From: Enterobacteria phage P922
Sequence record: OR999189.1
Length of the DNA stretch: 64,000 nt
Reading direction: 5' to 3' (one strand)
Position numbers and translations under genes: made by a program. The notes below the pieces were generated by a model, which saw only the letters and a program-made list of their open reading frames with translations, was not told the origin of the DNA and made no database searches. Shown here in pieces: positions 3,157 to 7,466 of this stretch. The stretch's first letter is position 1, and each line of letters begins with the position of its first letter.

Positions 3157-3351
3157 ATGTTAGGTTATCAAGCACGAGTAAAAGAAGAATACGATCAATT
3201 AATGCTCAAAATTAATGCACTGAGCAAATTTTTAGAAAGCGCAAAGTTTCTAACAGTTAATGCAGTTGAGCAAGAACTGTTACTTTCGCAGTTTATCTCA
3301 ATGAAATCTTATGCTGAATGTCTAGAGAAAAGAATTGCACAATTCAAATAA
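3157..3351 (+). CDS. hypothetical small protein (64 aa)
   Basis: ATG preceded by GAGGAAAAT; ORF followed by terminator hairpin. Confidence 0.5.
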   Translation: MLGYQARVKEEYDQLMLKINALSKFLESAKFLTVNAVEQELLLSQFISMKSYAECLEKRIAQFK

Positions 3352-3354
3352 AAT

Positions 3355-3377
3355 AAGGGCTTCGGCCCTTTTGTTTT
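3355..3377 (+). terminator. rho-independent terminator (GGGCTTCGGCCC plus T-run)
   Basis: GC stem with UUCG loop followed by TTTTGTTTT. Confidence 0.6.
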
Positions 3378-3437
3378 AAGAGAAATTATGATTTATTATA
3401 TGAATACCAGTGATTCAGACATAAAAGGAAAGTTTAA

Positions 3438-3995
3438 ATGCAGAAAACGAATCCGGGGTTACAGAGACTATTTCAGATTCCGACATTTACCCTATCGAAC
3501 AGTGACTTGACTAGTGAAATGAAGGTCAAAATTGTTGATACTGCAAGATACTCTTTAAAACAAAACCCAAATCAGGATAAGGCAGAAGTTATCGAAAGAT
3601 GCCGTATCGCTGTGTACGCAGAGTTTTTTGTAGCAGATTGGCTGAGCGGGTATGTTAACAAAGGTCAAGAAGATGTCGATGATCCGTACACATATGCATG
3701 GGATGTATTGGCGCATCCAAGATACTGCGGGCTTCGTGTAGAAGTTAAGACACATCAAACTGACTCACGTTGGATTTCGGTGACAACAGGATGCAGCGGA
3801 GAGTATCCATATGGTTCTGGAATAAATCTAGGGCCCATTCTAAATCATCAAGTCGCTGACTGTATAATTATATTCAACACTAAAGAAATTCATCCAGGTG
3901 TCATCCAATACACTCCGAAGTTCATCGGTGATAGAGAAGACCTTCGTAAGGTTGTAAGAAAAAGCAACTACAGCGGATGGTATCTTTCCATTTAA
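3438..3995 (+). CDS. denB: endonuclease IV (dC-specific ssDNA endonuclease)
   Basis: 185 aa, same length and genomic position as T4 DenB (between rIIB and ndd). Confidence 0.8.
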   Translation: MQKTNPGLQRLFQIPTFTLSNSDLTSEMKVKIVDTARYSLKQNPNQDKAEVIERCRIAVYAEFFVADWLSGYVNKGQEDVDDPYTYAWDVLAHPRYCGLRVEVKTHQTDSRWISVTTGCSGEYPYGSGINLGPILNHQVADCIIIFNTKEIHPGVIQYTPKFIGDREDLRKVVRKSNYSGWYLSI

Positions 3996-4055
3996 AAAAT
4001 TTCACAAAATGGTTTACATACCACAAGGACCGTGGTACTATACAACTATCAACTG
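3995..4055 (+). promoter_or_regulatory. T4-type early promoter (GTTTAC -35, TGGTACTATAC -10 region)
   Basis: AAAAAATTTCACAAAATGGTTTACA...GTGGTACTATACAACTATCAACT; near-identical copies at approx 7660 and 24570. Confidence 0.55.
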
Positions 4056-4075
4056 ATACGGATTTGGAGAGTAAA

Positions 4076-4339
4076 ATGAAATTTAAATTTTATTACGCTA
4101 AACATAAAATAACTGATGAGTTTGTGTCAGTTGAATATTCTAGCGATGATGAAGGCATGATTTATACTCGCTTAGGATTATCGCATTGGGAGTCTGATAC
4201 GCCTTATTTTTCAACTCCCGAAGAAATTACACGCTTAGTTAATGGTCATATGAATGACCACTGGAATGTAATTCTTTCGGATAGTCTTAAAAATGCTATT
4301 AACAATAATGAAATGAAAATCGCTGAGATTGAACTATGA
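4076..4339 (+). CDS. hypothetical protein (87 aa)
   Basis: internal ATG with GGAGAGTAAA SD; the longer track ORF (3977) would include the promoter and overlap denB. Confidence 0.45.
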   Translation: MKFKFYYAKHKITDEFVSVEYSSDDEGMIYTRLGLSHWESDTPYFSTPEEITRLVNGHMNDHWNVILSDSLKNAINNNEMKIAEIEL

Positions 4340-4422
4340 GTTCATTATGGTGGTGTTTTGTTTGGTTAATTAGTATTCCATTAATTTGTTTAACATTTAC
4401 TTTTGTAATGAGGTTATTATGA
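4336..4422 (+). CDS. tiny hydrophobic peptide (28 aa)
   Basis: ATGA overlap with upstream ORF; W/C/F-rich; hand-translated, not in ORF track. Confidence 0.25.
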   Translation: MSSLWWCFVWLISIPLICLTFTFVMRLL

Positions 4423-4517
4423 AAATTTTGAATTCTGTACTTATTGCTTGTGCGTGGTGGGTTGCACAGGTTTCAGCGGTAGTAGTTGGTATTCACATTT
4501 ATTACGAATATTTTTAA
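4419..4517 (+). CDS. tiny hydrophobic peptide (32 aa)
   Basis: GAGG SD, start overlaps previous stop; single predicted TM segment. Confidence 0.3.
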   Translation: MKILNSVLIACAWWVAQVSAVVVGIHIYYEYF

Positions 4518-4519
4518 AA

Positions 4520-4560
4520 AAAGTTGTTTACAAGACTGTTCTTCCGTGGTACTATTACCC
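4520..4560 (+). promoter_or_regulatory. T4-type early promoter
   Basis: AAAAAAAGTTGTTTACAAG...GTGGTACTATTACCCTATCAACT. Confidence 0.5.
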
Positions 4561-4583
4561 TATCAACTACGGAGGAACAGAAA

Positions 4584-4697
4584 ATGAAAAAGATTGTTAA
4601 AGCTATATGGAATGTAGTTATAATACTAGTAGTTTTGAGTATATTCCTAATCGTTTTAATGATTGATGTATTAAACGCTTACTTTGGATTTATGTGA
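4584..4697 (+). CDS. small membrane peptide (37 aa)
   Basis: GGAGGAACAGAAAATG start; hydrophobic core. Confidence 0.35.
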   Translation: MKKIVKAIWNVVIILVVLSIFLIVLMIDVLNAYFGFM

Positions 4698-4704
4698 GGA
4701 AAAT

Positions 4705-4902
4705 ATGAAGCGTAAACGCAGTGCTTTTACATTTATTGAATGGTTTTTCGATAATATTTTTCCAGCTTTATTCATTTTCATGTTGATTTTCGCCTTGGGT
4801 TCAGTTGTAGTTGGAATTTATTTGATGGCAGTTGTCGGAATGGACATTCATCAAAATGGCTTAAAATCTGTGGTTGAAACAATTTGGAATGGTGTAAAAT
4901 GA
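4705..4902 (+). CDS. small membrane protein (65 aa)
   Basis: GAGGAAAATATG start; two hydrophobic segments. Confidence 0.4.
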   Translation: MKRKRSAFTFIEWFFDNIFPALFIFMLIFALGSVVVGIYLMAVVGMDIHQNGLKSVVETIWNGVK

Positions 4903-5009
4903 TGAATTTGCTGAGTGGTTGGTTTTATATTCTTATGTTTTACATTGGTGCAAATTTCCCATACTGGATGGGATGGTCAACAACTGCGTTTGGATTTTAT
5001 ACTCCTTGA
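4899..5009 (+). CDS. tiny hydrophobic peptide (36 aa)
   Basis: ATGA overlap with previous ORF; hand-translated. Confidence 0.3.
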   Translation: MMNLLSGWFYILMFYIGANFPYWMGWSTTAFGFYTP

Positions 5010-5017
5010 GGTGAATT

Positions 5018-5233
5018 ATGAAAAGTTTTAAAGATGTAAAAGTTGGTGAAATTTTTTGTTTAGATAACGGTGATCAGTTAATTCGTATTTCACCTCTTAA
5101 GAGCACTAGCGAAAAAATGACAGTTAATGCTACTTTAGCAAATAACAGTAATGAACGTTTCTGTATTGAAAATGATACTGAAACTTATACCGTAGAAGAG
5201 TTTTGGGAATTGAGCGTCGACTGCGACGATTAA
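5018..5233 (+). CDS. hypothetical protein (71 aa)
   Basis: GAGGTGAATTATG start; followed by a GC-rich hairpin. Confidence 0.45.
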   Translation: MKSFKDVKVGEIFCLDNGDQLIRISPLKSTSEKMTVNATLANNSNERFCIENDTETYTVEEFWELSVDCDD

Positions 5234-5295
5234 TTTAATGGCCGCGTGTATTCTCATGCGGCCTTGGAGTAGAAAATAATTTAGAGGAAATTAAT

Positions 5296-5754
5296 ATGAA
5301 ATACATGACTGTTACTGATCTGAATAATGCAGGCGCTACTGTTATTGGTACAATCAAGGGTGGTGAGTGGTTTTTGGGAACTCCGCATAAAGATATTTTA
5401 TCTAAACCTGGATTTTATTTTTTAGTAAGTAAATTAGATGGTCGTCCATTTAGTAATCCATGTGTGTCTGCACGATTTTATGTAGGTAATCAGCGTTCTA
5501 AGCAAGGATTCAGTGCAGTTCTAAGTCATATTCGTCAACGTCGGTCTCAGCTTGCACGTACTATTGCAAATAACAATATGGTATACACAGTATTTTATCT
5601 GCCTGCTTCTAAGATGAAACCTCTGACGACGGGATTTGGAAAAGGACAGTTAGCTTTAGCGTTTACTCGTAATCATCATTCTGAGTATCAAACACTTGAA
5701 GAAATGAACCGTATGTTGGCTGATAATTTTAAATTCGTTTTGCAGGCATATTAA
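5296..5754 (+). CDS. ndd: nucleoid disruption protein
   Basis: 152 aa; size and position (upstream of stp/ac/52) as in T4. Confidence 0.8.
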
Positions 5755-5834
5755 TGAGTAATTTCCACAACGAACACGTGATGCAGTTCTATCGTAATAA
5801 TCTTAAAACTAAAGGCGTCTTCGGACGCCAGTGA
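5754..5834 (+). CDS. stp: Stp peptide (26 aa; restriction inhibitor / PrrC anticodon nuclease activator)
   Basis: hand translation [26 protein letters not shown] matches T4 Stp as recalled; TAATG overlap with ndd. Confidence 0.8.
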
Positions 5835-5841
5835 GGAAAAT

Positions 5842-6000
5842 ATGAATATCGCAAAATTATTAGGAGTTATTTCATTTATTTGTTGGATAGTAGCATGTGT
5901 TTTAACTATCTGTATTGATGCCAGCAGTGTGTTTTCGCAAGCTTTAGCTCAGGGTATGTGTGCATATTTAACATTTGTGTTGTTATCTACTAATGATTAA
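5842..6000 (+). CDS. ac: acridine-resistance membrane protein
   Basis: 52 aa hydrophobic ORF directly after stp with GAGGAAAATATG start; T4 ac is about 51 aa at this position. Confidence 0.6.
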   Translation: MNIAKLLGVISFICWIVACVLTICIDASSVFSQALAQGMCAYLTFVLLSTND

Positions 6001-6133
6001 GAAAATCTTGGGCTATTCATTAGCCCTTGCTATTTTATTGATAGCATTATATTACGGAATAATGTTCGGATTAATTCAAGTCGTGCTTTTCATTTCTGAT
6101 GTTATTATGGCACTACATTCACTAGTATGGTAA
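5993..6133 (+). CDS. small membrane peptide (46 aa)
   Basis: overlaps ac stop; hydrophobic; ends 4 nt before gene 52. Confidence 0.35.
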   Translation: MIKKILGYSLALAILLIALYYGIMFGLIQVVLFISDVIMALHSLVW

Positions 6134-6137
6134 ATTT

Positions 6138-7466
6138 ATGCAACTGAATAATCGCGATTTAAAAAGTATCATTGATAATGAAGCATTGGCTTATGCTATG
6201 TACACGGTTGAAAATCGTGCCATTCCAAATATGATTGACGGATTTAAGCCAGTTCAACGATTTGTTATTGCTCGAGCTCTTGATTTGGCACGAGGAAATA
6301 AAGATAAGTTTCACAAACTCGCTTCTATCGCAGGCGGTGTAGCGGACCTTGGATATCATCATGGTGAAAACTCTGCGCAAGACGCAGGTGCTTTGATGGC
6401 TAACACTTGGAATAATAACTTTCCTCTGTTAGACGGTCAAGGAAACTTTGGTTCTCGTACTGTTCAAAAAGCAGCGGCAAGTCGTTATATTTTTGCTCGT
6501 GTAAGTAAAAATTTCTATAACGTATATAAAGATACTGAATATGCTCCGGTACATCAAGATAAAGAACACATTCCTCCTGCTTTCTATTTGCCTATTATTC
6601 CTACTGTTCTTCTTAATGGTGTTTCCGGTATTGCAACTGGTTATGCAACTTACATTCTTCCTCATAGTGTTTCTTCTGTCAAGAAAGCTGTACTACAAGC
6701 TCTTCAAGGAAAGAAAGTAACTAAACCGAAGGTAGAATTCCCAGAATTTCGTGGTGAAGTCGTTGAAATTGATGGCCAATATGAAATTCGTGGAACGTAC
6801 AAGTTTACTTCACGAACCCAAATGCATATCACTGAGATTCCATATAAGTATGATCGTGAAACTTATGTGAGTAAAATCTTAGACCCGCTTGAAGATAAAG
6901 GCTTCATTACATGGGATGATGCTTGTGGTGAGCATGGCTTTGGCTTTAAAGTTAAATTCCGCAAAGAATACTCTTTGAGCGATAACGAAGAAGAACGTCA
7001 CGCGAAAATTATGAAAGACTTCGGGTTGATTGAGCGTCGTTCCCAGAATATTACCGTTATTAATGAGAAAGGAAAGCTGCAAGTTTACGACAACGTAGTT
7101 GATTTAATCAAAGACTTCGTTGAAGTTCGTAAAACTTATGTCCAAAAACGAATTGATAACAAAATCAAAGAAACTGAATCAGCATTTCGTCTAGCCTTTG
7201 CCAAGGCACATTTCATTAAGAAAGTAATTTCAGGTGAAATTGTGGTGCAGGGTAAAACTCGCAAAGAACTGACCGAAGAACTTTCTAAAATTGATATGTA
7301 TTCTTCTTATGTCGATAAACTAGTCGGAATGAATATTTTTCATATGACTTCTGATGAAGCAAAGAAACTTGCTGAAGAAGCTAAAGCTAAGAAAGAAGAA
7401 AACGAATATTGGAAAACTACTGATGTAGTTACAGAATACACCAAAGATTTAGAGGAAATCAAATGA
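6138..7466 (+). CDS. 52: DNA topoisomerase II medium subunit
   Basis: 442 aa; type II topoisomerase breakage-reunion motifs (PNMIDGFKPVQRF...); same length as T4 gp52. Confidence 0.9.
   Translation: MQLNNRDLKSIIDNEALAYAMYTVENRAIPNMIDGFKPVQRFVIARALDLARGNKDKFHKLASIAGGVADLGYHHGENSAQDAGALMANTWNNNFPLLDGQGNFGSRTVQKAAASRYIFARVSKNFYNVYKDTEYAPVHQDKEHIPPAFYLPIIPTVLLNGVSGIATGYATYILPHSVSSVKKAVLQALQGKKVTKPKVEFPEFRGEVVEIDGQYEIRGTYKFTSRTQMHITEIPYKYDRETYVSKILDPLEDKGFITWDDACGEHGFGFKVKFRKEYSLSDNEEERHAKIMKDFGLIERRSQNITVINEKGKLQVYDNVVDLIKDFVEVRKTYVQKRIDNKIKETESAFRLAFAKAHFIKKVISGEIVVQGKTRKELTEELSKIDMYSSYVDKLVGMNIFHMTSDEAKKLAEEAKAKKEENEYWKTTDVVTEYTKDLEEIK

Follow-up and report, generated by a model that had tools for sequence, protein, structure and literature searches.

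Five conserved T4-type micro-protein genes of Enterobacteria phage P922 probably constitute accessory membrane-protein genes in two coupled early units

The region between denB and ndd of Enterobacteria phage P922 (sequence record OR999189.1) was analysed within a stretch of 64,000 nucleotides (nt), hereafter the window. The locus examined (window nt 4336–5009, 674 nt, + strand) contained five consecutive open reading frames (ORFs) for peptides of 28, 32, 37, 65 and 36 amino acids (aa). These ORFs are long-annotated T4 genes, rediscovered here, namely ndd.6, ndd.5, ndd.4, ndd.3 together with ndd.2a, and ndd.2 (T4p275–T4p270), and the window is that of a T4-like Tequatrovirus. Very probably they are real accessory genes for membrane micro-proteins arranged in two coupled units, and any particular target that might be named for the peptides is unlikely to be the right one. 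A preliminary description of the same DNA had placed the five ORFs between denB and ndd, and all of them were recovered at the positions it gave.

Window nt 3990–5300, from denB to ndd, aligned collinearly with nt 166029–167109 of T4 NC_000866, the feature table being compared as well, and nt 3400–6200 were collinear with the T4 D region, with the orientation reversed. The position between denB and ndd, the gene order and the junctions were as in T4 ndd.6 to ndd.2, with about 97% nucleotide identity; the peptides differed from the T4 products by 0 to 5 residues, and all five matched PHROG families over their full length (E=3e-17 to 3e-30). Differences from T4 were also observed. A full 87-aa ORF was located 5′ of ndd.6 in the window, whereas in T4 it is cut to 8 codons, and the upstream ATG used by the T4 annotation of ndd.4 (42 aa) was ACG in the window, so that ndd.4 starts here at the second ATG. 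The 674-nt block was recovered from 491 phage records with at least 94% identity, and all these records were of Tequatrovirus type; outside this genus, DNA matches were limited to a piece consisting of a promoter and the 5′ untranslated region (5′UTR). Arrays of this kind had been called mostly unstudied, which is true of the products of ndd.1 to ndd.6, described as unknown (Kutter et al. 2018, PMC6071114), but the present one is not an unrecognised array, since the genes are annotated in T4 and are represented by PHROG families and one Pfam family.

Coding capacity was assessed from an alignment of the window, T4 and 19 further relatives (about 20 sequences), in nearly all of which the five frames were intact. 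The pooled ratio of nonsynonymous to synonymous variation (pN/pS) was 0.125 in the annotated frames versus 1.45 in the +1 frame and 1.70 in the +2 frame; the pairwise counts behind these ratios lack phylogenetic independence, and the contrast from frame to frame serves as the internal control. For the individual ORFs, pN/pS was 0.15 (ndd.6), 0.08 (ndd.5), 0.80 (ndd.4), 0.08 (the 65-aa ORF) and 0.13 (ndd.2), with 0.095 for the downstream ndd.1. Variants at codon positions 1, 2 and 3 numbered 28, 10 and 62, that is, 62% were in the third position, and the variant codons comprised 52 synonymous and 36 nonsynonymous ones. ORFs covered 89% of the 674 nt, compared to a mean of 20% in shuffled sequences, none of 5000 shuffles reaching 89%, and the chance of finding at least five ATG-initiated ORFs of at least 28 aa was 0.0018 in the shuffle test. 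The purifying selection, the concentration of variants in the third codon position and the conservation between genera (see below) together indicate that the five ORFs are genuine coding genes. Two sequences, IMG/VR 2974742932 and fFiEco06, carried insertions: in one of them, 2 nt (GG) at ndd.6/ndd.5 break the ATGA overlap, and in the other, ndd.1 is split by 44 additional nt. Either assembly errors or real lesions may account for these insertions.

Conservation in related phages had been proposed as a check on the reading frames, and homologues of four of the five peptides were found in other Tevenvirinae genera whose DNA no longer aligns, ndd.5 being conserved solely within Tequatrovirus. 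They were located by synteny, as tblastn was insensitive for ndd.4 (E=3e-4 even at 100% identity); IMG/VR scans, covering 5 and 12 loci, added one extra lineage, too few for statistics. Gaprivervirus (TH57, VR20) possessed ndd.6, with a TTG start and a TTGA overlap, ndd.4, the 65-aa gene and ndd.1; Karamvirus Pet-CM3-4 possessed an ndd.4-like ORF (39 aa), a 69-aa counterpart of the 65-aa gene and an ATGA-coupled ndd.2-like ORF (41 aa); and Jiaodavirus possessed an ndd.4-like ORF, the 65-aa gene and a 29-aa transmembrane (TM) ORF. On a 177-kb IMG/VR contig, the order was ndd.4-like, ndd.2-like, a 45-aa ORF, the 65-aa gene and ndd, while homologues of ndd.2 were also present in 25 Klebsiella phages. 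In RB69 (Mosigvirus), the 87-aa ORF was followed through an ATGA by a 28-aa ndd.6 homologue and through a second ATGA by a 36-aa TM ORF, and ndd.4, the 65-aa gene and ndd.2 were absent at this locus. The 36-aa ORF of RB69 was rejected as an ndd.5 homologue, having the same position and no alignment. The RB69 locus (NC_004928, nt 3773–3966, minus strand) belongs to a gap of 250 nt that RefSeq leaves without annotation between ORF270c and ndd.1, both gap ORFs, the ndd.6 homologue and the 36-aa TM ORF, being missing from the annotation.

At the amino acid level, the ndd.6 homologues of RB69 and Gaprivervirus shared 43% to 54% identity, with 11 of the 28 residues invariant across genera, and were always coupled via an (A/T)TGA overlap. 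The ndd.4 alignment followed the pattern MKK..K.IW...D, and the ndd.2-like peptides of Karamvirus, the IMG/VR contig and the Klebsiella phages shared the motif Y.G.N..YW.G.S. The sequence TGAGGAAAATAT was located 5′ of the 65-aa gene in four genera, and on the IMG/VR contig, a fifth lineage, the same TGAGGAAAATAT junction precedes the gene after ndd.4, which is there the ndd.2-like ORF. The families of ndd.4, the 65-aa gene and ndd.2 occurred together in at least three genera.

The 65-aa ORF matched the domain DUF7248 (PF23906) with 71.9 bits, against a gathering threshold of 27 (E=4.4e-20), protein residues 6–63 aligning with profile positions 4–57 of 58, and in 496 of 499 records its frame was unbroken. 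In the T4 reference, one G of codon 2 is absent (ATGAA-CGT; window nt 4705–4712, NC_000866 nt 166548–166628), which gives rise to 'ndd.3' (26 aa, in the wrong frame and without selection) and to 'ndd.2a', the C-terminal part with 40 aa. With an 80-nt probe, the version without the G was 100% identical in X75802.1, AF158101.6 and NC_000866.4 among the records listed, and a fourth record, not listed, fell in the band of 99% identity or more. The extra base was present in the T4 records OZ209023 and OZ209057, in T4T HM137666 and in 484 other records, and two more T4 records encoded the intact 65-aa protein. These comparisons indicate that the ndd.3/ndd.2a split results either from a sequencing error or from a lesion specific to the strain of the original isolate, and that the true gene encodes one 65-aa DUF7248 protein, the ndd.3/ndd.2a pair being unsupported. 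In T2 (MH751506, nt 1269–1466), the DUF7248 gene had GGA changed to TGA in codon 45, an in-frame stop that removes the conserved tail, and a second T2 record (95.4% identity) was consistent with this stop. With the base loss in the T4 reference and the stop in T2, both classic laboratory phages are lesioned in the DUF7248 gene. The literature search returned no mention of ndd.2a or DUF7248.

The DUF7248 protein consists of an N-terminal KRKR, about 33–38 hydrophobic residues, and the C-terminal tail NGLKSVVE.IWNG. Residues invariant across genera were G52, L53, K54, S55, W61 and G63, whereas the TM part varied freely. A single-sequence AlphaFold2 model gave one helix over residues 6–64 with a predicted local distance difference test (pLDDT) score of 89.7. 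In Pfam, DUF7248 is a very narrow family without an assigned function, the database relatives carrying the same domain. A HMMER search of 1.84 billion proteins gave about three genuine DUF7248 clusters, all from T4-like phages, the remaining matches being hydrophobic low-complexity segments in giant proteins, and a separate homologue search with the 65-aa protein gave eight clusters, again all from T4-like phages. In Shigella phage Sf25, the N-terminal TM half of ndd.4 and the C-terminal half of DUF7248 are naturally fused in frame into a 62-aa protein, which carries both PF26889 and PF23906; this fusion is compatible with ndd.4 and DUF7248 sharing the same membrane orientation.

The junctions between the ORFs suggest that the array consists of two translationally coupled modules, not one (Table 1). 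Unit A would comprise promoter 1, the 87-aa ORF, ndd.6 and ndd.5, coupled by two ATGA overlaps, and unit B would comprise promoter 2, ndd.4, the DUF7248 gene, ndd.2 and ndd.1, in which Shine-Dalgarno (SD) sequences overlap the preceding stops and one junction is an ATGA/TGATG overlap. The two modules were distributed independently among genera, and both promoter sites are annotated as early promoters in related phages. The ATGA overlaps were observed at nt 4336 (with the 87-aa ORF), 4419 (ndd.6/ndd.5, with GAGG 7 nt upstream) and 4899 (DUF7248 gene/ndd.2, where ATGATG overlaps the TGA stop as TGATG/ATGA). The gap between ndd.4 and the DUF7248 gene was 7 nt, with the SD overlapping the stop codon (TGAGGAAAATATG), and ndd.1 was preceded by TGAGGTGAATTATG, its SD GAGGTGA overlapping the ndd.2 stop. 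Linkage by ATGA overlaps or short gaps, as described previously for the array, was thus found at these junctions, with gaps of 7–8 nt, but not before ndd.4, where early promoter 2, of T4 type, and the SD GGAGGA lie within a gap of 66 nt. Similarly, the SDs ascribed to all five ORFs were recognised for ndd.5 (GAGG), ndd.4 (GGAGGA) and the DUF7248 gene, but those of ndd.6 and ndd.2 were weak, and the latter two genes look dependent on coupling to the upstream ORF. Since the first ATG of ndd.2 is ATA in many relatives, its conserved start is the second ATG at nt 4902 (35 aa).

Table 1. Genes and predicted regulatory elements in and around the denB–ndd interval of the window
Feature	Position (nt)	Strand	Description
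denB	3438–3995		Counterpart in the T4 D region
Early promoter 1	4012–4041	+	Putative; GTTTACA ... GTGGTACTAT, extended -10 TG; promoter scan hit at 4013–4041
87-aa ORF	4076–4339	+	Soluble; phrog_2390, RB69 ORF270c type; first cistron of unit A
ndd.6	4336–4422	+	28 aa (MSSLWWCFVWLISIPLICLTFTFVMRLL), single TM predicted; phrog_8851, E=3e-17
ndd.5	4419–4517	+	32 aa, single TM predicted; phrog_5011; GAGG SD
Early promoter 2	4526–4555	+	Putative; GTTTACA ... GTGGTACTAT; promoter scan hit at 4527–4555
ndd.4	4584–4697	+	37 aa, single TM predicted; phrog_3098; GGAGGA SD at 4571–4576
DUF7248 gene (T4 ndd.3+ndd.2a)	4705–4902	+	65 aa; phrog_2401, PF23906
ndd.2	4899–5009	+	36 aa; aromatic-rich, uncharged; phrog_4135
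ndd.1	5018–5233	+	71 aa, acidic, soluble; phrog_2183; last small cistron of unit B
RNA hairpin	5240–5263	+	Predicted; 9-bp, GC-rich, without U-tract; -19.4 kcal/mol, z = -4.2
ndd	5296–5754		Followed by stp, ac, 52.1 and gene 52

The 87-aa ORF was hypervariable, with 73% variable columns and three strongly diverged alleles; in T2 and RB7 it was replaced by an unrelated 68-aa gene, and in T4 a deletion between AAAATGAAA repeats has left only the mini-ORF MKIAEIEL of 8 codons. Nevertheless, its last ca. 27 nt (the 8-codon tail) and the ATGA were kept in 20 of 20 sequences, in five upstream contexts. As ndd.6 is almost without an SD of its own, it is probably translated through re-initiation by ribosomes that have terminated at the end of the upstream ORF, and the retained tail with its ATGA is best read as a termination-reinitiation requirement for ndd.6.

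Unit B ends at the hairpin located between ndd.1 and ndd. In related phages, this hairpin has been annotated as a terminator of the rho-independent type, and it could serve to stabilise or process the mRNA. In Rfam, no family was matched at E<=1 in window nt 3300–6200. Promoter 2 together with its 5′UTR (window nt 4499–4591; GTTTACA…GTGGTACTAT…CTATCAACTA) is a repeated element and the sole part of the block that matched other T-even loci (77% to 89% DNA identity), e.g. near dmd and ipI. The SDs of the first cistrons of both units, TTTGGAGAG (nt 4060–4075) and ACGGAGGAAC (nt 4568–4583), contained GGAG. This sequence is the cleavage motif of the T4 RegB endoribonuclease in early mRNAs, and its presence in both SDs suggests that RegB may shut off both units a few minutes after infection.

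Further downstream, ac (52 aa) and 52.1 (46 aa) were hydrophobic, on the same strand (window nt 5842–6133) and overlapped by 8 nt; with these two counted, the D region contains at least seven membrane-type micro-ORFs. Automated names of the micro-ORFs and their neighbours were unreliable and have spread from record to record; they include 'outer membrane protein', 'periplasmic protein', 'naphthalene 1,2-dioxygenase' and 'chaperone for long tail fiber formation', and ac is named 'sugar ABC transporter permease' in annotations of relatives. In many genomes, ndd.6 or ndd.2 was left unannotated.

Membrane insertion was predicted with a criterion of a Kyte-Doolittle 19-residue mean of at least 1.6. 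The best windows of ndd.6 (2.31), ndd.5 (2.17), ndd.4 (3.33) and DUF7248 (2.71) reached this value, while that of ndd.2 (1.17) fell below it, this peptide having no charged residue and 33% aromatic residues. The one or two TM helices previously assigned to each peptide were thus borne out as a single segment in four of the five. Likewise, in the pooled composition Trp (5.6%) and Phe (10.1%) were enriched as had been described, but Cys (1.5%) was not, being confined to two residues in ndd.6 and one in ndd.5, with none in the other three peptides. Positive charges were located at the N-termini of ndd.4 (KK..K) and the DUF7248 protein (KRKR), from which both are predicted by the positive-inside rule to lie with the N-terminus in and the C-terminus out; in this orientation, the conserved DUF7248 tail would be in the periplasm. 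The possibility that the five peptides are tandem paralogues was rejected, the best E-value in an unfiltered all-versus-all BLASTP being 0.09, and no second copy of any of them was present elsewhere in the 64-kb window. No match of the five peptides was found to defence or counter-defence, toxin or holin families (Pfam, NCBIfam, PADLOC) or to the Imm family (Pfam at E<=1, PHROGs), and a PDB sequence search gave no meaningful match.

In T4, the transcripts of ndd.2 to ndd.6 are classed as 'early' (Wolfram-Schauerte et al. 2022, PMC9697503 Table S2), and the ndd.1 protein was detected early by proteomics (PMC9697503). An engineered T4 without ndd.5 to ndd.3 has been deposited in GenBank. The genes are accessory, that is, dispensable on laboratory hosts and kept by selection in nature. 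In the literature searched, no phenotype has been published for the ndd.x peptides and no T4 ribosome-profiling study was found; the text of the CRISPRi-ART T4 fitness supplement contained no ndd entries, and the ORFs were not covered by one paper on CRISPR escape and one on a toxicity screen.

Taken together, these data suggest that the most likely destination of the unrelated small hydrophobic peptides is the inner membrane of the host, into which they would insert during the first minutes of infection, and action on the inner membrane during host takeover, as had been suggested at the outset, is plausible. For the DUF7248 protein, the KRKR N-terminus would be cytoplasmic and the tail NGLKSVVE.IWNG periplasmic, where it may contact a component of the host envelope. 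The occurrence of ndd.4, DUF7248 and ndd.2 together in at least three genera suggests joint action, possibly as a small membrane complex. AcrZ, MgtS, KdpF and CydX are bacterial single-pass peptides of 30–65 aa that bind larger membrane proteins, and partner binding of this type is the favoured working model for DUF7248 and its neighbours, although proteins of the AcrZ/MgtS/KdpF/CydX type showed no homology to the five peptides in Pfam and NCBIfam, and the latter are phage-encoded and early.

Several observations weigh against this interpretation. The peptides of ndd.2 to ndd.6 were not detected in T4 shotgun proteomics (Class_P = NA; PMC9697503); as the genetically proven small proteins Ac and Stp also went undetected, this absence is weak negative evidence. 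A TM helix in ndd.2 is doubtful, and ndd.5 had no detectable homologue outside Tequatrovirus. Within Tequatrovirus, ndd.4 was without clear codon-level constraint (pN/pS as above, from only 9 variable sites); its replacements were all hydrophobic swaps, it was intact in 19 of 19 natural sequences, and its status as a gene rests on this intactness and on cross-genus conservation. The single-sequence AlphaFold2 model of the DUF7248 protein cannot separate one TM helix from a hairpin, and the proposed complex and topology depend solely on gene neighbourhood and the positive-inside rule. Finally, the published phenotype of this region comes from the deletion sa-delta-9 (52.1 to denB), which gave about 50% of the wild-type phage yield and abolished the T4-induced stimulation of phospholipid and phosphatidylglycerol synthesis (PMC6071114). 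This deletion of 3.4 kb also removes denB, ndd, stp, ac and 52.1, and a dCTPase/EndoIV/Alc mutant loses the lipid stimulation as well (PMC6071114). Thus, denB or cytosine-containing DNA, not the peptides, may cause the lipid phenotype, and the phosphatidylglycerol effect is the one published lead, its link to the peptides being only a lead.

Among more specific functions, the peptides may be anti-defence or host-range factors that either neutralise the abortive-infection or exclusion systems associated with the membranes of natural hosts or do not set them off. Such a role would explain their dispensability on laboratory strains despite conservation. It is in line with the neighbourhood of host-interaction accessory genes (rIIB, denB, ndd, stp and ac in the T4 annotation), with the mosaic of module presence and absence among genera, and with genes that are under purifying selection and yet lost or broken in the laboratory phages T4 (reference sequence) and T2. 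However, neither PADLOC nor Pfam nor NCBIfam gave a defence or counter-defence match, the literature searched held no phenotype, and this role is considered unlikely.

Somewhat less likely still is that the peptides reprogram the lipids or envelope of the host membrane, at least one of them causing the phosphatidylglycerol stimulation by T4. Several products of the region were predicted to be membrane proteins by the authors of the deletion study (PMC6071114), and four of the five peptides possess a hydrophobic segment of TM length, but sa-delta-9 removes more than 12 genes, the loss of stimulation in the dCTPase/EndoIV/Alc mutant points to denB or cytosine-containing DNA, and no similarity to lipid-metabolism proteins was found in Pfam or NCBIfam.

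It is improbable that the peptides are membrane-damaging toxins of host shutoff, similar to type I toxins or holins, which would act early in infection by depolarising the inner membrane or making it permeable. They are indeed very short, mostly strongly hydrophobic and rich in Trp and Phe, and many small immediate-early genes of T4 are lethal to the host when cloned (Kutter et al., PMC6071114). Against this, no holin or type I toxin family was matched in PHROGs and Pfam, an early collapse of the membrane potential would harm the phage itself, and the best conserved part of DUF7248 is the polar C-terminal tail, which fits specific binding better than bulk damage. Improbable to a similar degree is a further proposal, in which ndd.4, DUF7248 and ndd.2 would form a three-subunit inner-membrane complex across Tevenvirinae, the periplasmic tail binding an envelope enzyme or sensor of the host and thereby causing the phosphatidylglycerol switch or disarming a membrane defence; if true, a micro-protein complex of a phage would have received a defined function for the first time, and this in the phage studied best.

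Superinfection exclusion, in which the peptides would prevent secondary T-even phages from penetrating the envelope or introducing their DNA, had been raised in the preliminary description and is highly improbable. Only the generic arguments of early expression and probable membrane location speak for it, whereas no peptide had an Imm-family match and D-region deletions were not reported as exclusion-defective in the literature searched. Spackle contributes to exclusion in T4. In the same phage, the exclusion of incoming DNA has been ascribed to Imm, whose binding partner is the tape-measure protein (bioRxiv 10.64898/2026.03.06.709160). Equally remote is the idea that translation alone matters, as a ribosome relay that covers the early mRNA, shields it against polarity or RNase and feeds ndd.1 and ndd, or that the frames are chance ORFs of a T-rich leader: although the region is 40.7% T versus 31.7% in the window, T-rich sequence readily yields hydrophobic ORFs, the cistrons are tightly coupled and proteomics missed the peptides, this idea is largely refuted by the selection data, i.e. 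pN/pS of 0.08–0.15 in four ORFs versus more than 1 in the other frames, variation in the third position, amino acid motifs kept between genera without DNA alignment, and a tiling matched by 0 of 5000 shuffles.

With respect to known systems, the membrane micro-proteins proposed here may be compared with T4 Ac (51 aa) and gp52.1 (46 aa), small predicted membrane proteins which lie in the same neighbourhood, are similar in size with one TM-like segment each and, like the five peptides, are early, dispensable and undetected by proteomics, although they share no sequence similarity with any of the five. A genetic phenotype, acridine sensitivity or resistance, is known for Ac, whereas none is published for the ndd.x peptides. 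T4 Imm (83 aa) is likewise a small early inner-membrane protein acting at the envelope (bioRxiv 10.64898/2026.03.06.709160), as proposed for the five peptides; however, Imm is a multi-helix protein with the tape-measure protein gp29 as partner, while each of the five peptides has at most one TM segment.

As a discovery, the array carries little weight, its genes having been annotated in T4 from the 1990s onwards and being present in about 500 sequenced relatives. The present analysis adds the single 65-aa DUF7248 gene, the arrangement in two independently distributed and apparently coupled modules, and the co-occurrence of ndd.4, DUF7248 and ndd.2, which points to a joint function. The short polar C-terminal tail of DUF7248 would be a natural place to seek a host partner. 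The value of the locus is that of tractable phage "dark matter", namely five micro-proteins under selection that belong to the early genes of the best-understood phage.

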